This document shows, piece after piece, positions 1-10,428 of a DNA stretch of 33,294 bases; position 1 is the first letter of the stretch; each line of letters begins with the position of its first letter. The notes beneath the pieces are model-generated. The model was not told where the DNA came from and did not search any database. It saw only the letters and a program-made list of their open reading frames with translations. Made by a program: the position numbers and the translations under genes. This stretch comes from an uncultured Candidatus Saccharimonadales bacterium. GTDB taxonomy: Bacteria > Patescibacteriota > Saccharimonadia > UBA4664. The stretch lies in the NCBI GenBank assembly GCA_964405545.1, contig CAYOOH010000001.1, forward strand, positions 1 to 33,294, in the 5' to 3' direction.

Positions 1-220
1 GGCTCCAAAGTGCAAATGTAAGAAGTAGGCGTTTTGCTCTGGCTCGGAACACTGGATCAGCTCGGAAGCCTTGTTCGCAAGCTGTAACAGGTAGGAAGCC
101 AGCCCTTCGGCGCGTTGCTAACCACAAACGGGTCAGGTAGATGACCTTCTTTTGAGCTTCGGCAGCGCAAACCTGGTCGTAAAAAGCAGTCCCTGTATCG
201 CCGAACGTAGCTTTGGTCAT
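1..220 (-). CDS. partial hypothetical ORF running off the left edge
   Basis: Complement ATG at 220, open to position 1 (MTKATFGDTGTAFYDQVCAAEAQKKVIYLTRLW...). No SD and no recognisable motif. The second half is Arg-rich and looks poor. Confidence 0.2.
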   Translation of the reverse strand, partial: MTKATFGDTGTAFYDQVCAAEAQKKVIYLTRLWLATRRRAGFLPVTACEQGFRADPVFRARAKRLLLTFALWS

Positions 221-377
221 TTATCATTAGCACGCCAAATTCTTGCTTGCGGCATTTGGGGCATTGGATGTATGGCCCGCTTATAACATGCGAGGGTCGA
301 TTCGTATTACTTTCTCTTTGCCTTCCATGAGCTAATTATAAAGCCGCTTGATATGATGGGAGCGGAAGGATGAAGTA

Positions 378-662
378 ATGACAGAGCCACAAATTATGAA
401 GAAGGGTGTGCGAGCCATAACCAACGGGCATGTTATCCAGCTCGGCCCGCTGGAGCGGGAAAAAGATCTTGAGCATGAGCTGATCCATGTAGAGCAAGCG
501 GAACGGGAGCCCTTTATTCACCCACTGCTGTACCTTGTAGAATCTCGCAAGCACGGATACCGTCAAAACAAATACGAGGACGAGGCCTACACAAGGGCGA
601 GTAACGAATATAAGAGCACCAAGCCTACTAAAGCCTTTATTCCGCCTGTTCGCGAAGAATAG
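378..662 (+). CDS. small stand-alone DUF4157-like HExxH (putative Zn-metallopeptidase-like) protein, 94 aa
   Basis: GGAAGGA SD about 8 nt upstream of the ATG. The motif RAITNGHVIQLGP...EHELIHVEQ matches the DUF4157 signature (AfTxGxxIxfg ... HELxHVxQ). The 3' end overlaps the convergent STAS-like gene by 26 nt. Confidence 0.6.
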   Translation: MTEPQIMKKGVRAITNGHVIQLGPLEREKDLEHELIHVEQAEREPFIHPLLYLVESRKHGYRQNKYEDEAYTRASNEYKSTKPTKAFIPPVREE

Positions 663-903
663 CTATCGTGGCTTTTACCGACGGGTTGTCGCTTGGCATA
701 TAAGTAACCCGATCGCCATAGATCTCTTCTAGCGCCCTAAAGAATTCATCGGCCCAAGAGGGCGCAAGCGAAATAACGCCACTGAAATCGATTTCTATAT
801 GGGTTTCAGTAGGGCTTAGGGTTGGGCGTATTGCCGCAAAGGCTTCCCTGCCGGCTGGGCGGGAGGTAAGAACGTCTCCGAATTTTTTTAATTCGATTAT
901 CAT
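637..903 (-). CDS. STAS-like DUF4325 domain protein (anti-sigma-antagonist fold), 88 aa
   Basis: The whole length fits the DUF4325 pattern: LTSRPAGREAF...HIEIDFSGVISLAPSWADEFFRAL. The start lies 2 nt after the stop of the upstream GHKL gene, so the two look operonic. Confidence 0.8.
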   Translation of the reverse strand: MIIELKKFGDVLTSRPAGREAFAAIRPTLSPTETHIEIDFSGVISLAPSWADEFFRALEEIYGDRVTYMPSDNPSVKATIAILREQAE

Positions 904-905
904 AA

Positions 906-1637
906 TTAATACTCAATCCTAGCTAATGTACCGCGAATGAAATGGTCTGCGAGCCTTACCTTTAGTTCTTTGGGACCTTCTTTTTCAATTGTGGCGATTG
1001 CTACCCCTGATTGCAAAGCAATCCCTATTGGATTCTGCATTGCTACCGTTCGCACAAACTTTAGGCCGTTTCCTCTTTGCTCAGGAGTTCTGCCTGATAC
1101 AAACTCTGTCATAGCGATGGTTAGTGCCTCGATGTCGTCTTTCATTTCCGGACGCACTCTTAGTAATGTGGTCTTGATCCCCACCCCTCGATCAGCCAGG
1201 ACAACGATGCGCTTATTTAAATCATAACTGAAGAATAGGCCTGGTGTGTCGGGCCAATTCCCTAAGTTATGATCAAATGAATTGTTGCCAATTTCTCCCG
1301 CCACGGCTGTGACTAGTGAGGCCGCCTCAAAGTTCTGAGGACTTTGGTTTATCAAGCTAGCCATTCGGTCCAGTCTAGCCCTAAATCTATCCTGTGTATC
1401 GGAGTAATCCGTAGAAGGGAGGTCAGGCGCTACTTCACTCGCCGCCCATACTTGTGCCAGTCTAAAAAGCTCGGTGTTATAACGTTCGAGCGCATCCCTG
1501 TGATAGTACCGATGTCCACCAGGGCTTTTTAGCGCGGGTAATTTTCCCGACTCGTCCCACCGACGCAAGGTCATTACTGTGACGCCTAGATACTTTGCGG
1601 CTTCACTTATTGGCACTAAGTTGTTGTGTCTGGGCAT
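906..1637 (-). CDS. MerR/excisionase-type HTH fused to an RsbW/SpoIIAB-like GHKL (HATPase_c) ATPase/kinase domain, 243 aa
   Basis: N-terminal HTH: VPISEAAKYLGVTVMTLRRWDESGKLPALKSPGGHRYY. N-box GEIGNNSFDHN, G1 DRGVGI, G2 GNGLKF. Start moved to the ATG at 1637 (MPRHNN...), because the track ORF start at 1685 adds an implausible hydrophobic leader. Confidence 0.8.
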   Translation of the reverse strand: MPRHNNLVPISEAAKYLGVTVMTLRRWDESGKLPALKSPGGHRYYHRDALERYNTELFRLAQVWAASEVAPDLPSTDYSDTQDRFRARLDRMASLINQSPQNFEAASLVTAVAGEIGNNSFDHNLGNWPDTPGLFFSYDLNKRIVVLADRGVGIKTTLLRVRPEMKDDIEALTIAMTEFVSGRTPEQRGNGLKFVRTVAMQNPIGIALQSGVAIATIEKEGPKELKVRLADHFIRGTLARIEY

Positions 1638-1718
1638 GTATAGATTTTGCATCAAAACTATACAAAATGTCAAATATCTATACATTTTTGGGTTTTGAGG
1701 CTGCTTTTGTATAGTTTT
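1638..1718. promoter_or_regulatory. cluster of four AAAA(C/T)CTATAC sites, including a perfect 14-bp inverted repeat; candidate operator array for the MerR-HTH protein
   Basis: AAAACTATACAAAA lies at 1654-1667 (+) and its exact reverse complement at 1705-1718. Related copies sit at 1638-1648 (complement, abutting the start codon) and 1673-1688 (+). A TTGACA on the minus strand lies at 1668-1673. Confidence 0.5.
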
Positions 1719-1754
1719 AAGCGCGGAATTGGTCCATGATCGTAGTGATAAGAT

Positions 1755-1784
1755 GGTTCTAACTTCCGATACGATCCGGAGCCA
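1755..1784 (+). repeat. intergenic motif copy A (GGTTCTAACTT-CCGATACGAT-CCGGAGCCA)
   Basis: 1755-1773 is identical (19/19) to 5014-5032. 1756-1784 matches 2689-2717 at 22/29 positions with no gaps. It contains a small TCCG...CGGA hairpin. Confidence 0.8.
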
Positions 1785-1798
1785 AGGACTTATGCTTA

Positions 1799-1827
1799 AC
1801 GAGGCTTGTTGAGGCCTCGTTTTTGTT
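1799..1827 (+). terminator. rho-independent terminator-like hairpin with no + strand gene upstream
   Basis: ACGAGGC-ttgttgag-GCCTCGT, a 7-bp stem, followed by TTTTGTT. It lies directly after motif copy A. Confidence 0.55.
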
Positions 1828-1842
1828 ACACTCTAGGAATGG

Positions 1843-2034
1843 ATGGTTCTCAGAATAAATAGCCAGGGGTTGGCGGTACAAGAAACAACGAGTTTAGGGT
1901 GGCAAAAAACGTATGCAGAACTTTCGGTTGACGCTGAGCAAGCGACTGAAGGGCCGACTAAAATCGACAAGGGCGGCATCCGCGCGCATGCCCGGAGTAG
2001 AATTGAAACCACTATTACAACATTTCGGATATAA
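1843..2034 (+). CDS. possible small ORF (63 aa) immediately upstream of the HEPN gene
   Basis: AGGA lies 4 nt upstream of the ATG. The stop is 8 nt before the HEPN ATG, which has no SD of its own, so translational coupling is possible. No motif was found, and a 92-aa antisense ORF is also open here. Confidence 0.3.
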   Translation: MVLRINSQGLAVQETTSLGWQKTYAELSVDAEQATEGPTKIDKGGIRAHARSRIETTITTFRI

Positions 2035-2041
2035 TTAGAAT

Positions 2042-2668
2042 ATGACAGGTAGTCAAAGTAAAGACTTAACCAACTACATAGAAAGTGTACGCGAGTGGTA
2101 CCACACGGCACTTACGAGCTTTACTTTATACCAAGGATTAATGATCAAGAAGGCTCCTAATCAAGTCGGCGTGGAAGCGGCACGAAAAAACGTAGGTACT
2201 TGGAATGAGTACAATGGTGTTTTCACGGTTGCACTCAACACAGCAAGGTACTCATCAATCATGAGCCTAGCTGTTTTGTTTATAGACGGGAAAGATAAAG
2301 AAGGAAATCCTTCTATGTCTCTTGCTAATTTACTCGAAGAGGTAGCCGAAAATTATACAGTAGATGGAGTAGAGCTTGAGACCATACGAGAAAAGTTGAG
2401 TAGTAATGAGACAATTGATACCCTAAAGATTCTTCGCAATCAGTACTTGGCACACGCAGATAAGAACCCTGACGAAATCCAGATCAGTGACTCCATGTTC
2501 GAAGGTCTCCTTGCCCTAACGAAACATATTGTGGCTTTCGCAGAGAGGTACATACTTCATTACGATATAGACGATGCCCAGTATAGGCACAATACGACGT
2601 CAGGCAGTAATGTTCAAAATGATGTTTCATTTAGTCTAGATAAACTATTTACCAGACTGCAATCCTGA
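2042..2668 (+). CDS. HEPN-domain protein, AbiU2-like (abortive-infection-type putative RNase), 208 aa
   Basis: C-terminal Rx4-6H HEPN motif in LKILRNQYLAHADKN. The protein is all-helical and of AbiU2-like size. GC is visibly lower than in the flanking genes. Confidence 0.6.
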   Translation: MTGSQSKDLTNYIESVREWYHTALTSFTLYQGLMIKKAPNQVGVEAARKNVGTWNEYNGVFTVALNTARYSSIMSLAVLFIDGKDKEGNPSMSLANLLEEVAENYTVDGVELETIREKLSSNETIDTLKILRNQYLAHADKNPDEIQISDSMFEGLLALTKHIVAFAERYILHYDIDDAQYRHNTTSGSNVQNDVSFSLDKLFTRLQS

Positions 2669-2688
2669 CCAATCCCCCCTTAATTGCA

Positions 2689-2717
2689 GTTCTAACTTTG
2701 TCCGCGACCCGGAGCCA
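2689..2717 (+). repeat. intergenic motif copy B (GTTCTAACTT-TGTCCGCGAC-CCGGAGCCA)
   Basis: It starts 21 nt after the HEPN stop and matches copy A at 22/29 positions in register. It is followed by a weak hairpin plus T-run (AAGCC-13 nt-GGCTT-TTTTT, about 2738-2765). Confidence 0.7.
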
Positions 2718-2806
2718 GTCATTATTTTTACGCAGCAAGCCATCAAAATCGAACGGCTTTTTTTGCTTTGGTTCGGAAAATGCTGGATTAGCTTAAGTAG
2801 TCTTCA

Positions 2807-2835
2807 TTGGAATGTGCAAGAAAAAAGCTTATGCT
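2807..2835 (+). promoter_or_regulatory. sigma70-like promoter for the ABC exporter operon
   Basis: TTGGAA-N17-TATGCT. The CTTATGCTTA string at 2828-2837 also occurs in copy A (1789-1798). Confidence 0.45.
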
Positions 2836-2856
2836 TAGAAAAATTATGAGAGTGTC

Positions 2857-3543
2857 ATGCAAACAGCAGTTGAATTAAAAAACGTGACCCGTATATATAA
2901 ACTGGGCGATGAGGTCTTAAAGGCCCTAGATAGTGTGACATTGACGATTGCGCCGGGCGAGTTTGTAGCGATTACCGGTCCAAGCGGGTCAGGCAAATCA
3001 ACGCTAGCCAATATTATCGGCGGCTTGGACGAGCCGGACGGCGGCAGCGTGACAGTGGCGGGCATGGAGCTAGCCAAGGCGCGCGACAAAGAGCTGTCGA
3101 GCTATCGCAACCACACGATAGGATTTGTGTTTCAGAGCTTTAACTTGCAGGCCACGGCCACAGCGCTGGAGAATGTGATGCTGCCGCTTACCCTTGGTCG
3201 CATGCACAAAAAGGAACGGGTAGCGCGGGCAGAGGAGTGTTTGAAGGCAGTAGGCCTGGGCGACCGTCTGCGGCATAAGCCCACGGAGCTCTCGGGCGGG
3301 CAGCGGCAGCGGGTGGCAATAGCGCGGGCGCTCGCTAATAAGCCCAGCATTATTATTGCCGACGAGCCCACGGGCAACCTAGACAGCGAGCGAGGCAAGG
3401 AGATTATGGCAGTGTTGCGTGACCTGAACCAATCGGGGATTACGCTCATTATTATTACTCACGATGTGGAGGTGGCGAAGATGGCCGGGCGGACGCTATT
3501 TATTAAGGACGGCCATGTGACCGAGAGCGGGAGGGGCAAATAA
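2857..3543 (+). CDS. ABC transporter ATP-binding protein, MacB/LolD/FtsE-like subfamily
   Basis: Walker [10 protein letters not shown], signature [15 protein letters not shown], Walker [14 protein letters not shown]-loop ITHD. Confidence 0.95.
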
Positions 3544-4979
3544 TGCGCAGCATTGATCTAGTGACCACGGCACTGCGGAACCTGCGGCGGCAAAAGCTGC
3601 GGTCGGCGCTGACAATTTTTGCGGTGGTGATTGGGGCTACGAGCGTGACAATCATGCTAGCTTTGGTGACTGGAGTGAAGGGTTTCTTTGTGAACCAGTT
3701 TTCGGCCAATGGCACGCTACAGCAAATTGCTATTTCGTCGCAAACGGACTTGTCGAAGTTTGACGACGGGAATAATGGCGGCAATAACTGCGATAGCTGC
3801 GTCAAGCTAACGGATGAGCTGTGGGGTAAGATCGGGAAGATTCCGCATATAACCGGCGCGGCCCGGCGACTGAGTGGCGGGTCATTTGAGGCCATTACCT
3901 ATAACGGCCAGAAACTGCGGCTGAATCAGGTGGAGGGCTATGACGCCAATGGGGTGGTAACGAACACGATGCTAGCTGGCCGTGATATCCGAGATACCGA
4001 CCTTCAGGGCGTGGTGACGGTGACGTCAGACTATGCCGATAAATGGGGTTTTAAGGGCCGCTATGGGGACCTGGTGGGTAAGTCTGTGAATCTGACATCG
4101 CGGACGTGGTACCAGGGCGTGGGCTATACGCCGGAGCCGCCTCAGATGGGGTCAAATGGTGGTGGCGATAACCGCCCAGAGCAAAAGGCGACCATCCTAG
4201 AGGCAGAGATAGTGGGCGTGGTGGACGGCGGTGATCGTGGCGAAACGGTGCGCGCTCCCCTGCCCTGGGTTATTGGTATGAACTCACAGCAGATGTACCA
4301 AGAAACCGAGGCCGATCGTAAGGCGCGCGAGGACGCCCAGCGGGCCTGCCAGAATCGGCCGGGGGTGTCGTGCCAGGGCGTGCCGCCGCACTTTACGCTG
4401 GTGGTGACAAACTTTGTGACGCAAAACGGCTATAGCGCTTTTACGGCCAAGGTGGATGACCCGGCCAACGCGGCGGCGGCCACGGCGGAGATTAAGAAGC
4501 TGGGAGTAGGAGCGGCCGATGCCCAGAGCCTGATTAAAGCCCAACTGCAGATTTTCAACATTATTAGCTATGTGTTGGGCGGCATTGGCGGAATCGCGCT
4601 GGCGGTGGCGGCCATTGGAGTAATAAACACTATGGTAATGGCCATTTTGGAGCGCACGCGCGAGATCGGCGTAATGCGGGCCTGCGGCGCCACCCGGGTA
4701 ACCATCCGACGGCTGTTTACTATAGAGGCCGGAATGCTGGGCTTTTGGGGTGGCGTGTTTGGCGTGGCGGTGGGCTATGGGCTGACGTTTGTGGCCAATA
4801 TTCTGATTAATCGGCAGCTGTCTTCGGGAGGAGTGCAGGCACATAACATTATTGGTCTGCCGCTCTGGCTGATAGTGGCGGTCATTGGCACTACCACGCT
4901 TATTGGCATGCTCAGTGGTCTGTACCCGGCCTTCCGGGCGGCACGGCTGAACCCCGTGGAAGCACTGCGCTACGAATAG
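3543..4979 (+). CDS. ABC transporter permease, MacB_PCD + FtsX family
   Basis: The ATG overlaps the stop of the ATPase gene (TAATG). The protein has an N-terminal TM segment, a large extracytoplasmic domain and a C-terminal FtsX-type 3-TM bundle (REIGVMRACGATR...LNPVEALRYE). Confidence 0.9.
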   Translation: MRSIDLVTTALRNLRRQKLRSALTIFAVVIGATSVTIMLALVTGVKGFFVNQFSANGTLQQIAISSQTDLSKFDDGNNGGNNCDSCVKLTDELWGKIGKIPHITGAARRLSGGSFEAITYNGQKLRLNQVEGYDANGVVTNTMLAGRDIRDTDLQGVVTVTSDYADKWGFKGRYGDLVGKSVNLTSRTWYQGVGYTPEPPQMGSNGGGDNRPEQKATILEAEIVGVVDGGDRGETVRAPLPWVIGMNSQQMYQETEADRKAREDAQRACQNRPGVSCQGVPPHFTLVVTNFVTQNGYSAFTAKVDDPANAAAATAEIKKLGVGAADAQSLIKAQLQIFNIISYVLGGIGGIALAVAAIGVINTMVMAILERTREIGVMRACGATRVTIRRLFTIEAGMLGFWGGVFGVAVGYGLTFVANILINRQLSSGGVQAHNIIGLPLWLIVAVIGTTTLIGMLSGLYPAFRAARLNPVEALRYE

Positions 4980-4986
4980 CTTTTGG

Positions 4987-5010
4987 GCGGGGTGCGAGAT
5001 GCGGGGTGCG
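4987..5010 (+). repeat. G-rich direct repeat (GCGGGGTGCG x2) / potential G-quadruplex tract
   Basis: GCGGGGTGCG occurs at 4987-4996 and 5001-5010. Together with flanking Gs this gives GGG-C-GGGG-N10-GGGG-TGC-GGG (4985-5012). Confidence 0.5.
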
Positions 5011-5013
5011 GGC

Positions 5014-5032
5014 GGTTCTAACTTCCGATACG
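5014..5032 (+). repeat. intergenic motif copy C (GGTTCTAACTTCCGATACG)
   Basis: Perfect 19-nt direct repeat of 1755-1773, starting 35 nt after the permease stop. Confidence 0.8.
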
Positions 5033-5183
5033 GGACTAAGCTAGGAATTGATCTGCTAAAGCCTTTGGGTGGCCAGCCGCGATGAGATTTTCGCCAGTGG
5101 CGGGATGACCAGATGGTTATTTCTGAAATATACTGGATTAATTTTATTTTTGTGGTATTATTGCCCTGAATTACCGAACTCCT

Positions 5184-8995: not shown

Positions 8996-9739
8996 CTATT
9001 TGAGGGTAAATCCAGCATCTACGACTAGATTCTCGCCCGTTACAGCCTCGGCGGTCGCCAGATACAAGAAGGCTTGGGCGATTTCTTCTGGCTGGATCCA
9101 GCGCTTAATTAGGGTGCTGTCGATGAACTGGTCTTTGACTCCTTGTGGGGTGTTGTCGTAGTTGGGGGTAATAACAAAACCGGGGGCGACGGCGTTGACG
9201 CGGATTCTGGGCGCCAATTCTTTGGCCAGGGTTTTGGTAAAGCTGATAGCGGCAGCTTTGGCGGCTGAATAGGCCATAATACCTTCGCGGCCCGCATGCT
9301 CGACGCCGCGAATGGAGGTGGTGTTGAGAATCACGCCGCTGCCTTTTTGGAGCATAATTTTGGCAGCCTCTTGGGAACAGAGAACCATATTAAAGAGGTT
9401 GTTATCGAAATCCGACAGCCAATCAGCCTTGGTGGTCTCGAGGAATGGTTTGCTTGCGGCAACGCCGGCGTTGTTTATCAGAATATCAACCGTTCCGAAC
9501 TTCTGGATGGTGGCCTCAAAGAGCCTCTTGACTTGGTTGGGCTGGGCAAGATCGGCTTGGACAAATAACGCTTGGCCGCCAGCTTTGGTAATTTCAGTGG
9601 TTACGGCCTGGCCGCCTGATGCGTTATTCTTGGCATTTATGACCACTTTGGCGCCTTGTTCGGCAAAGAGCAGGGCCGTGGCTCGGCCGATGTTAGCGGC
9701 CGAGCCGGTAATGATTGCGACTTTCCCGGCTAATTTCAT
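8996..9739 (-). CDS. SDR-family oxidoreductase (FabG-like)
   Basis: TGSAANIG cofactor motif, NNAG, catalytic YSAAKAA (YxxxK). Confidence 0.9.
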   Translation of the reverse strand: MKLAGKVAIITGSAANIGRATALLFAEQGAKVVINAKNNASGGQAVTTEITKAGGQALFVQADLAQPNQVKRLFEATIQKFGTVDILINNAGVAASKPFLETTKADWLSDFDNNLFNMVLCSQEAAKIMLQKGSGVILNTTSIRGVEHAGREGIMAYSAAKAAAISFTKTLAKELAPRIRVNAVAPGFVITPNYDNTPQGVKDQFIDSTLIKRWIQPEEIAQAFLYLATAEAVTGENLVVDAGFTLK

Positions 9740-9919
9740 GACAGCTTCCTTGATTAGTGCCAGCCTTAACAGTAGAAGAAATGTCTTTTCTGAGCAAATT
9801 AATGGTTGAGGACAGCGATTTTAAATCTTGGTTGCGGGAAGATCTGTGGGGTTTTTGGGGACACGAGGAGCGACGAAGCCCCCAACAGAGTCAGGGACTT
9901 CGTCGGGGGCATGGAGCGG

Positions 9920-10375
9920 CTATTCGGGTTGACTGCGCTGCATCTGCTGGTAGGCTTCCAGCATTTGCGGCGTCGGTTCCGTGAGGGTCTTGCAGCTAAT
10001 CAGATGGACCTCCAGAGCTTGGTACCTTGAGCGTACCCACTCTTCGACGGCTCGAAGATGGGCGAGGGTACAGATCGGGCCGCGGCGCAAGACGGTTGTG
10101 GCGCCAAACCCCGTCCCCTGTGCCGAAGCAAAGAAGTAGGCGGCGAAGTAGTAAGAGATGCTCCCATCAGAGGAGCTGGGACTGTCGGGTAGGAAGTCCC
10201 AGTTGAGGATGGCGGCAACGTGAACGCCATACTCCATAGCTAGGCTGGCCTGTAGGTCCCAGATGGACTGCTCGCTTGAAGGTGCTCCTGGCAGTTCGAT
10301 GACAGACGAACCATACGCCAGTTTCAGCCCGAACCGATCGTCCGGGATGGTGAAGGAGACGAGATAGGACGGCAT
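9920..10375 (-). CDS. hypothetical protein, 151 aa
   Basis: Complete ORF served by a consensus promoter (see 10429-10458). No motif recognised. Confidence 0.55.
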   Translation of the reverse strand: MPSYLVSFTIPDDRFGLKLAYGSSVIELPGAPSSEQSIWDLQASLAMEYGVHVAAILNWDFLPDSPSSSDGSISYYFAAYFFASAQGTGFGATTVLRRGPICTLAHLRAVEEWVRSRYQALEVHLISCKTLTEPTPQMLEAYQQMQRSQPE

Positions 10376-10428
10376 GTTGGCCTCTATTTCTGTCTTAGCC
10401 CGAAAATACCTAGGTTGACTGTTTTGCT

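Follow-up and report, generated by a model that had tools for sequence, protein, structure and literature searches.

The nearest characterized relatives of the locus reported here are two systems in which a GHKL kinase is paired with a STAS-domain protein, CapK-CapS ('controller of adjacent pathways') and VapK-VapS-VapC, both of which act in phage defense (Chambers et al., EMBO J 2026; PMC13373217). CapK, a 368-aa protein of the order helix-turn-helix (HTH)-STAS-GHKL, phosphorylates Ser54 of CapS (STAS followed by a winged HTH, wHTH), which frees this repressor from its own promoter and from the adjacent immune operon; single-stranded DNA (ssDNA) activates the kinase (PMC13373217). Such control of transcription is independent of sigma factors; the CapKS gene pair lies upstream of immune operons in 348 of 443 cases and the system binds palindromes, the operator-binding wHTH residing on the STAS protein and the role of the HTH on the kinase being unknown (PMC13373217). 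For VapK (STAS-GHKL) the authors propose phosphorylation of VapS, a STAS antitoxin, at Ser48 and, by it, release of the PIN toxin VapC; they draw on phosphomimetic mutants, alanine mutants and a model made with AlphaFold 3, a direct assay of VapK not having been possible (PMC13373217). In CapK and VapK an internal STAS domain serves as a sensor and forms the site that binds ssDNA, in CapK a groove between the STAS and GHKL domains, and a C-terminal helix of VapS inhibits VapC (PMC13373217). Here we analyze a pair of adjacent genes, gene 1 (a MerR-type HTH joined to a GHKL-like domain) and gene 2 (a small STAS-like DUF4325 protein), which together with their promoter occupy positions 637-1714 of a 33,294-nt stretch of DNA (henceforth the window) from an uncultured Candidatus Saccharimonadales bacterium (GenBank assembly GCA_964405545.1, contig CAYOOH010000001.1).

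Judged by profile comparisons, the pair is a remote member of the lineage of VapK/CapK and VapS/CapS. It resembles VapK-VapS in its gene order, with a small STAS gene of the DUF4325 type directly after that of a GHKL kinase, and the N-box of VapK (E-I-x-x-N-S-F-[DE]-H) is shared with the gene 1 family; VapK differs from gene 1 by its N-terminal STAS sensor, its ssDNA binding and the lack of an HTH. In the pair, unlike VapKSC, a third gene is not conserved, the STAS protein has no extension at its C-terminus, and the kinase carries an HTH that appears to read its own promoter. With CapK-CapS it has in common a kinase gene directly followed by a STAS gene, a promoter that seems autoregulated and an N-terminal HTH on the kinase. 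Unlike in CapKS, the STAS protein carries no DNA-binding domain, it is the kinase HTH that matches the operator, the sites are mainly direct repeats, no downstream operon is conserved (the products there being mostly unrelated to defense), and the hosts belong to the candidate phyla radiation (CPR). Given the missing internal STAS domain, the missing wHTH or C-terminal helix on the STAS protein, and the absence of an immune operon or PIN toxin, the pair falls outside the definitions of both CapKS and VapKSC. What is new, as far as domain composition tells, is the placing of the DNA-binding domain on the kinase, which makes the pair a third way of wiring a kinase-STAS module of the CapK/VapK type. 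An original prediction made from the letters of the window had known of no functional description of such a pair; this is outdated, CapK/CapS and VapK/VapS/VapC being characterized remote homologues and VapS itself a DUF4325 member (PMC13373217).

Two more distant comparisons are also instructive. The SpoIIAB-SpoIIAA and RsbW-RsbV modules share with the pair the GHKL motifs (E-x3-N-x3-H, DxGxG and a G-x-G lid) and a single-domain STAS protein, and gene 2 and STAS proteins of the SpoIIAA/RsbV type have in common a Ser at the N-terminus of helix 2; unlike these modules, the pair has no linked sigma factor or PP2C phosphatase and its kinase has a DNA-binding domain of its own. The MerR-like BldC assembles head-to-tail into multimers on direct repeats whose number varies (Schumacher et al. 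2018, PMC5859096). Like the HTH of gene 1 it lacks the MerR coiled-coil, and the sites predicted for gene 1 are likewise direct repeats, varying in number and about one or two helical turns apart; BldC differs as a 68-residue stand-alone protein with an AATT-N4-C repeat, and gene 1 in its fusion to a GHKL domain, its TG(T/C)ATAG boxes and, in the clade of the window, additional inverted boxes. On balance we are inclined to read 637-1714 as a self-contained, autoregulated two-gene switch in which gene 1 encodes a repressor-kinase and gene 2 its STAS partner. The comparison of homologous loci shows the HTH of gene 1 to read phased boxes over the promoter of its own bicistronic unit, and this evidence is presented first.

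Operator boxes and the recognition-helix residue

The heptamer TGTATAG occurs five times in the window, and four of these copies fall within 1637-1714, where inverted-repeat pairs are found among them. Repeated boxes are also found at homologous loci. A TAG-containing heptamer, usually TG(T/C)ATAG, is present in at least two exact copies (two or three) in 73 of 81 homologous promoters, TGTATAG being the most frequent repeated heptamer in 26 promoters and TGCATAG in 23. Across these 81 upstream regions the start-to-start spacing of boxes was 20-21 bp 62 times and 10 bp 14 times, and 181 boxes gave the consensus wT-TG(T/C)ATAG(A/T)TTT, i.e. TG(T/C)ATAGATTT. The boxes, mostly direct repeats, cover the -35 element, the spacer and the start codon region.

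Residue 22 of the gene 1 protein, at the start of the recognition helix and immediately before T-L-R-R-W, predicts base 3 of the box without exception. Asp22 accompanies TGCATAG in 30 of 30 loci, Met, Ala, Gln or Thr22 accompanies TGTATAG in 27 of 27 (26 of 26 in the subset placed on a tree), and the five loci with Asn22 all have (G/A)GTAG boxes, so that the mutual information between residue 22 and box base 3 reaches 1.0 bit. A neighbor-joining tree made from the non-HTH part of the gene 1 protein calls for a minimum of 10 changes of residue class and of 12 changes of box class, with concordance at all 61 tree loci. This covariation looks like a direct contact between amino acid and base, and no other evidence speaks as strongly for a reading of the operator boxes by the HTH of gene 1; given that residue 22 predicts base 3 throughout, we infer that the gene 1 product binds and represses its own promoter. 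The original prediction had proposed that coupling to DNA here runs through the HTH instead of a sigma factor, and the perfect covariation of the boxes in the pair's own promoter with a recognition-helix residue speaks for it. The predicted specificity residue is directly testable by one point mutation and two oligonucleotides.

The direction of this control can be predicted from the promoter. Its spacer of 17-18 bp is of normal length, compared with the 19-20 bp of classical MerR palindromic operators, and since the boxes lie over the -35 element, the spacer and the start site of such a promoter, binding of the gene 1 product should repress it, in contrast to MerR-style activation. From the position of the promoter in the window (1673-1644), the transcription start would coincide with the ATG at 1637 or adjoin it. 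Of 55 homologous promoters that scored well, 36 have a -10 hexamer whose end is 6-12 nt ahead of the ATG, and a Shine-Dalgarno-like motif was seen in only 2 of 81; from this placement and this rarity, the gene 1 transcript is probably leaderless.

Domains of the two proteins and a fused paralogue

The open reading frame (ORF) of gene 1 as listed spans 906-1685; alignment with 25 homologues moves its start to the ATG at 1637, and the NCBI record of the contig annotates the identical sequence as a gene. As originally described, the two genes lie 2 nt apart on the minus strand, the ATG of gene 2 following 2 nt past the stop codon of gene 1. Residues 10-53 of gene 1 match Pfam MerR (43.8 bits), HTH_17 (44 bits) and MerR_1 (37.8 bits) as well as NCBIfam 'excise', all above cut-off and in agreement with the MerR/excisionase-type HTH that had been called; HTH_BldC and IS607 remained below cut-off. 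The best PDB sequence matches of the HTH are 6amk and 6ama (each 'Putative DNA-binding protein', E 2.5e-5), which we take to be BldC-DNA complexes. An AlphaFold2 model of the protein (predicted local distance difference test, pLDDT, 79.6) places HTH helices at residues 10-17 and 21-30 and linker helices at 47-66 and 82-97. The linker has the invariant residues W64, T81, D83, F85 and R88 and the motif Y-C-x-T-[QR]-D-x-F, retained in forms of the protein that have no HTH. What follows the HTH is a GHKL domain and not the coiled-coil dimerization helix or effector domain of MerR proteins. Coordinates are collected in Table 1.

By its motifs and its predicted fold, the C-terminal half of gene 1 is a divergent GHKL domain. 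The N-box, G1 and G2 motifs reported in the original prediction are all present, and in 26 close homologues E115, N119, H123, D149, G151, G153, G189 and N190 are invariant and G191 is nearly so; among 79 diverse representatives of the family G153 and G189 remain invariant and E115, N119, H123, D149, G151, N190 and G191 nearly invariant. When the AlphaFold2 model was compared with the PDB by Foldseek, the top 50 matches were all GHKL proteins (ATPase domains of Hsp90/TRAP1, Topo VI-B, GyrB or Topo II), at moderate significance (E 9e-5 to 2e-3). For profile comparisons, the CapK, CapS, VapK and VapS sequences were taken from the supplementary files of their description (PMC13373217). With hhalign the GHKL profile of the gene 1 family aligned with VapK over 147 columns (E 6.8e-6, probability 85%) and the family profile aligned with CapK through its GHKL part alone (E 1.2e-4, probability 55%). 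Against an unconfirmed SpoIIAB sequence the motifs align, but only weakly (E 0.036, probability 1.4%), and the N-box E-x3-N-x3-H is common to the gene 1 family, CapK, VapK and this SpoIIAB sequence. Weak matches to Pfam GHKL models occur among the 79 representatives, HATPase_c_2 being the commonest (23, with HATPase_c in 12), all of them sub-threshold with a best E of ~6e-4; searches of the PDB with the gene 1 sequence and profile found HTH proteins alone. The GHKL call of the original prediction thus stands on the structural model, the weak HATPase_c_2 and HATPase_c matches within the family and the VapK/CapK profile matches, the window protein itself having no Pfam GHKL match.

Gene 2 had been described as an 88-aa DUF4325 protein, and Pfam DUF4325 (PF14213) does match it at 26.8 bits (cut-off 23 bits, E 4.2e-6); most of its homologues carry a precomputed PF14213 annotation. 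It consists of the STAS-like domain only and ends directly after it, with no C-terminal extension. The AlphaFold2 model (pLDDT 92) has the order beta-alpha-beta-alpha-beta-alpha, and Ser49, invariant in 22 homologues, sits at the start of the helix 48-65, in keeping with the phospho-acceptor Ser/Thr of SpoIIAA, CapS and (as proposed) VapS at the N-terminus of helix 2. By hhalign the gene 2 family aligns with the STAS domain of CapS (E 9.8e-5) with S49 opposite CapS S54. VapS is a clear member of DUF4325 (62.7 bits), its S48 (Ser or Thr across the VapS family) comes within one position of Ser49, and both stand in the context D-F-S-x-V...A-[SP]-[PS]-[FW]. VapS membership ties the family of gene 2 to an experimentally characterized protein. 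Searches of the PDB with the gene 2 sequence and profile gave no match.

Table 1. Positions of the pair, its regulatory elements and the adjoining ORFs in the window.
Feature	Position	Strand	Description
Gene 1	906..1637	minus	243 aa; stop codon 906-908; HTH, helical linker and GHKL kinase-like domain
Winged HTH, MerR/excisionase/BldC type	1473..1616	minus	residues 8-55; recognition helix from residue 21
Predicted specificity residue Met22 of gene 1	codon 1572-1574	minus	covaries with box base 3
Helical linker	1338..1472	minus	residues 56-100; from alignment, HTH-less sequences and AlphaFold2 helices
GHKL (Bergerat-fold) domain, VapK/CapK or anti-sigma-kinase type	909..1337	minus	residues 101-243; from Foldseek, hhalign and motifs
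N-box GEIGNNSFDHN	1266-1298	minus	sequence motif
G1 DRGVGI	1176-1193	minus	sequence motif
G2 GNGLKF	1056-1073	minus	sequence motif
Gene 2	637..903	minus	88 aa, with the stop codon at 637-639; STAS-like protein made up of a single DUF4325 domain
Invariant Ser49 of gene 2	codon 757-759	minus	from alignment of 22 homologues
Predicted sigma-70-type promoter	1644..1673	minus	TTGACA 1673-1668, 18-nt spacer, CAAAAT 1649-1644; 10/12 matches (promoter scan)
Predicted operator	1637..1714	minus	four TGTATAG boxes
Direct boxes	1678-1684 and 1658-1664		gene orientation, 20 bp apart; the former flanks the -35, the latter lies in the spacer
Inverted boxes	1708-1714 and 1637-1643		the latter overlaps the start codon
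HExxH ORF	378-662	plus	94 aa; HELIH; singleton at 90% identity; no significant family match
HEPN-like ORF	2042-2668	plus	208 aa; sub-threshold HEPN_AbiU2 match; R-x5-H motif RNQYLAH

The GHKL domain of the gene 1 family is not confined to one kind of HTH, being found fused to HTH domains of at least five types (MerR, MarR/HTH_24, HTH_11, ArsR or Xre), or to none. In a close relative (locus L214; DATKIP010000064.1, Saccharimonadia) all three domain types occur in a single 344-aa protein at 9356-10390, 3 kb from the pair of that genome: a wHTH, HATPase_c_2 (30.7 bits) and DUF4325 (46.9 bits), the last two passing their Pfam cut-offs. This fused paralogue has more than 5700 relatives; the nearest 120 share 56-96% identity, and those of them that bear names come from Patescibacteria. 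Members of the family are annotated as 'DUF4325 domain-containing protein' or, by JGI, as 'anti-sigma regulatory factor (Ser/Thr protein kinase)'. Its promoter (L214 9255-9350) holds about five direct repeats of CTAACATAGA over TTGACA and the -10 element, and the paralogue appears, from this arrangement, to be a parallel autoregulated system. It is like the pair in its domain types, its wide presence in Patescibacteria (at ~60% identity) and its repeat-packed own promoter, and unlike it in being one polypeptide with a different type of HTH and a GHKL domain that Pfam recognizes; the relationship is distant (E 1.8e-4 to gene 1, 6e-3 to gene 2). Taken together, the fusion of the GHKL domain to several HTH types and the fused wHTH-GHKL-DUF4325 protein argue for a functional link between HTH, GHKL and STAS domains.

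Three further arrangements of the GHKL domain were noted in passing. It is joined to an N-terminal cytidylyltransferase-like domain in P0270 and to an ArsR-like wHTH in P0267, and in P0331 it has an extension of ~100 aa with an F-I-D-P-W-G motif that could be STAS-like.

Distribution, neighbors and other possible targets

The contig resembles one from a metagenome-assembled genome of the Saccharimonadia, and the closest relative that bears a name is a Candidatus Saccharimonadia bacterium. Relatives of gene 1 numbered 4552 at E<=1e-3, the closest listed being ~242 aa long and 56-93% identical, with the named ones from many Patescibacteria lineages. Among the GTDB species-representative genomes 563 stretches encode a relative, and the best 80 of them look like CPR genomes. 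The C-terminal domain of gene 1 accounts for 293 clusters at 50% identity among 1.84 billion representatives, HTH-less forms of 190-200 aa included. Immediately after gene 1, on the same strand, comes a DUF4325 gene at every one of 87 loci (gaps from -29 to +41 nt), and the three HTH-less genes examined are also followed by one. When the flanking ORFs of 83 non-redundant loci were clustered, no further conserved neighbor emerged, sigma factors and PP2C phosphatases included. Since no neighbor but gene 2 is conserved across loci, the pair is a stand-alone module, an operon found widely in Patescibacteria (CPR).

The original prediction had seen in the surroundings the kind of neighborhood in which conflict and defense systems sit. 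This view is not supported by the comparison, given that no neighbor is conserved in the 83 loci and that the downstream genes are mostly unrelated to defense. Of 77 loci, 43 have the gene after the pair in the same direction and 34 have it convergent, as in the window; its products are mixed, among them GMP synthase, YchF, RuvC, Fpg and a Mur ligase; a minority is of defense type (AbiEii twice, methyltransferases, DpnI, nSTAND3 twice), and there is one integrase. Even relatives whose DUF4325 protein is 83-88% or whose gene 1 is 82% identical have wholly different neighbors, without the HEPN-like and HExxH ORFs that flank the pair in the window.

Two functions suggested by neighboring genes were considered and dropped. 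A heat-shock regulator of the HspR type had been prompted by ClpB or HrcA-GrpE-DnaK-DnaJ genes adjoining the pair on the first two long contigs, and by a weak HspR match of the gene 1 HTH; such genes adjoin 3 of the 83 loci, about what chance would give for a genome of ~1 Mb, and no operator lies near them. As for a metal-responsive MerR regulator, the recurrent neighbor cluster behind the idea (11 loci) turned out to consist of generic ABC ATPases.

Exact and degenerate searches for phased boxes in 1.13 Mb of flanks revealed one further cluster only, in L072, upstream of an ORF that reads from its sequence as resembling an AAA ATPase; single boxes in these flanks were no commoner than expected under a Markov model. 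A metagenome-wide scan for two boxes (pattern ATAGATTT-N9-10-TGYATAGATTT) gave at least 120 matches. Among the matches listed, 45 are the promoters of the pair itself and 8 lie too near a contig end to be classified; most of the rest fall in AT-rich tandem repeats, coding sequence or phage-like contigs and are attributed to chance. No target recurs among the matches listed, the plausible non-self sites all being singletons. It follows that the regulon would be very small or private to each lineage, and a regulon so small gives room to two rival readings weighed below, a module of the toxin-antitoxin (TA) or defense type and a GHKL ATPase clamp without phosphotransfer.

Several of the sites outside the pair's own promoter are recorded here individually; the labels rpoB, radC, NYN/PIN-like, PD-(D/E)XK-like, transposase and AbiE-like were read from translations, with no profile search. 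Phased TGCATAG boxes, in operator-like arrays of 3-5, precede by ~250 nt an ORF reading as rpoB in L146 and L175 (1-382) and are also found upstream of one reading as radC in L157 (230-531), in all these cases at contig ends; no boxes accompany the ORF of the window whose translation likewise suggests radC (9253-9921 of the reversed copy, complement). In L165 a second two-box operator (1745-1773 in locus coordinates) is located ~570 nt downstream of the pair, after an IS200/RAYT-like transposase ORF and directly before NYN/PIN-like nuclease and PD-(D/E)XK-like ORFs (1562-1984, 2084-2629 and 2708-3754 on the reverse-complemented copy), an arrangement that recalls the layout of VapKSC. Finally, L202 (1668-2791) has an orphan 96-aa DUF4325 gene, its identity backed by a family-profile match, with a three-box TGCATAG operator; no GHKL gene is present within the 12 kb examined, a PD-(D/E)XK-like gene comes after it, and AbiEi/AbiEii-like genes, as read from their sequences, come before.

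Modes of action and the surroundings of the pair

In the two-gene switch towards which we lean, gene 2 would be translationally coupled to gene 1, whose product would multimerize head-to-tail on the repeats in the manner of BldC. Its GHKL domain would bind ATP and would bind the STAS partner, phosphorylate it at Ser49 (the position of CapS Ser54), or both, and the state of the partner would toggle the kinase-repressor between a DNA-bound and a released form, in effect a partner switch with DNA in the place of the sigma factor. A precedent exists in the phosphorylation of CapS by CapK for sigma-free control of transcription (PMC13373217).

Quite a few observations weigh against this switch. On the side of the kinase, no Pfam GHKL model matches the protein of the window even at E<=1, single-sequence templates underlie the homology to VapK and CapK, and gene 1, made up of an HTH, a 45-residue linker and the GHKL domain, has no counterpart of the internal STAS sensor of CapK and VapK. 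As for the partner, Foldseek found nothing significant for the gene 2 model (best E 0.46), STAS proteins reached template modeling (TM) scores of only 0.49-0.58 (RsbS 0.58, a stressosome chain 0.57, RsfB 0.49) beside unrelated folds, and the fused paralogue has an Ala opposite S49, in a low-confidence alignment. A PP2C phosphatase occurs once among 76 downstream genes and none is conserved nearby. The operator of the window mixes direct and inverted boxes, which makes the geometry of binding uncertain, and with the pair's own promoter as the only detectable target there is no obvious output.

Some of these points would be accommodated by an ATP-driven DNA clamp, or ATPase switch without phosphotransfer, in which the ATP-bound GHKL domain dimerizes and so controls multimerization of the HTH, the STAS protein modulating nucleotide binding or hydrolysis. 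Hsp90, MutL and GyrB all dimerize through their GHKL domains upon ATP binding, and it is with Hsp90/TRAP1, Topo VI-B and GyrB, not with SpoIIAB or RsbW, that the model of gene 1 matches best; the Ala seemingly opposite S49 in the paralogue and the lack of a conserved phosphatase point the same way. We regard the clamp as rather unlikely all the same: the profiles favor the kinase lineage (VapK, CapK and, among the weak Pfam matches, HATPase_c_2), Ser49 is invariant at the position of the phospho-acceptor, the lid between G1 and G2 is short, much as in anti-sigma kinases, and the long N-terminal helices influence the Foldseek ranking. This resemblance to anti-sigma kinases could also be taken literally, as a conventional pair of the RsbW-RsbV or SpoIIAB-SpoIIAA type that sequesters an unlinked sigma factor, with the HTH serving feedback only. 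The alignment of N-box, G1 and G2 with the SpoIIAB sequence, the prevalence of HATPase_c_2 and the JGI label of the fused paralogues would fit such a pair, which nevertheless seems very improbable to us; neither a sigma factor nor a PP2C gene is conserved nearby, the match to SpoIIAB is far below those to the sigma-free VapK and CapK, and the fusion to various HTH types suggests DNA as the partner.

The remaining rivals concern conflict between genomes. The pair might be a TA or abortive-infection module related to VapKSC, controlling an effector that is unlinked or not yet recognized, or consisting of a growth-inhibitory kinase and a STAS protein that neutralizes it, with the HTH for TA-style autoregulation only. 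Close coupling of two genes, strong autoregulation of their promoter and the apparent lack of any further regulon are what one would see in that case, and the genomic context varies even among close relatives; the pair is present in some CPR genomes only, and identity does not track taxon labels, many of which are unreliable labels of metagenome-assembled genomes. AbiE, restriction-modification, integrase or transposase genes adjoin some loci, the copy in the window has a HEPN-like gene beside it and falls within a patch of low GC, L165 has its second operator before an ORF that reads as NYN/PIN-like, the orphan DUF4325 gene of L202 has an operator too, and the characterized homologues VapKSC and CapKS act in phage defense (PMC13373217). 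Yet no effector or toxin gene is conserved beside the pair in the 83 loci, most neighbors are housekeeping genes, the def-fmt, L10/L12 and dnaK operons among them, an identity of ~60% across CPR classes is unusual for arms-race genes, and in PADLOC-DB gene 1 is matched solely by the generic HTH model mad1 (E 6e-14, residues 7-52), with no model matching gene 2 or the HExxH and HEPN-like ORFs; we therefore consider a conflict module unlikely. If it were one, it would be among the few defense-type systems specific to CPR. Least probable of all, and in our estimate scarcely credible, is the original suggestion, taken further, that the pair, the AbiU2-like HEPN gene divergent from it and the HExxH mini-protein convergent with it make up one defense-island system. 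The genes do adjoin in a lower-GC patch at a contig end, and the 208-aa HEPN-like protein combines an R-x5-H motif with a match to HEPN_AbiU2, though at 25.5 bits this is below the cut-off of 26.8 and the AbiU2 assignment holds only to that extent. The mini-protein does have an HExxH motif, but it matches eCIS_core only at E 0.13; the 94-aa ORF is a singleton cluster with no significant family match. Neither neighbor turns up again at the remaining 82 non-redundant loci or beside the pair in close relatives, and no operator box lies near either of them in the window; the linkage was dropped as conserved nowhere else.

Returning to the two-gene switch, it would extend the sigma-free principle of CapK/CapS and VapK/VapS to a third wiring and to bacteria far removed in the tree. 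How CPR/Patescibacteria regulate their genes is, to our knowledge, almost unexplored; these bacteria do not grow on their own, few recognizable regulators are encoded in their genomes, and the pair gives them a conserved regulator with a defined predicted operator. More tentatively, it is conceivable that the split pair and the fused paralogue together form a major undescribed signaling system of Patescibacteria, in which a DNA-bound Ser kinase/ATPase repressor with a STAS switch, a one-residue/one-base code and leaderless autoregulated transcripts would operate without sigma factors, phosphatases or two-component partners.

Regarding the surroundings, the convergent overlap of 26 nt between gene 2 and the HExxH ORF noted originally is real (637-662), as is the lower-GC patch (0.41-0.49 compared with 0.52-0.62). 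The rest of the window holds ordinary transport and zinc-uptake genes. Scans of positions 1-3000 with Rfam models and for tRNAs found nothing. The same low-GC patch (1-3000) is without the strong GC skew that prevails over 11000-33294, where values of +0.2 to +0.4 in 1-kb windows are sustained independently of gene strand. A repeat of ~35 nt, ATTCCTGGCTCCGnnTCGTATCGGAAGTTAGAAC, occurs at 1745-1830 and at about 5005-5050 of the window, and again at 9130-9190 of L214, the locus with the fused paralogue. In the copies at 1745-1830 and in L214 it is preceded by a GC-rich hairpin with compensatory changes; that of the window (1798-1821, plus strand) reads as an intrinsic terminator, and the element could be a small RNA or similar to repetitive extragenic palindromic (REP) or miniature inverted-repeat transposable (MITE) elements.

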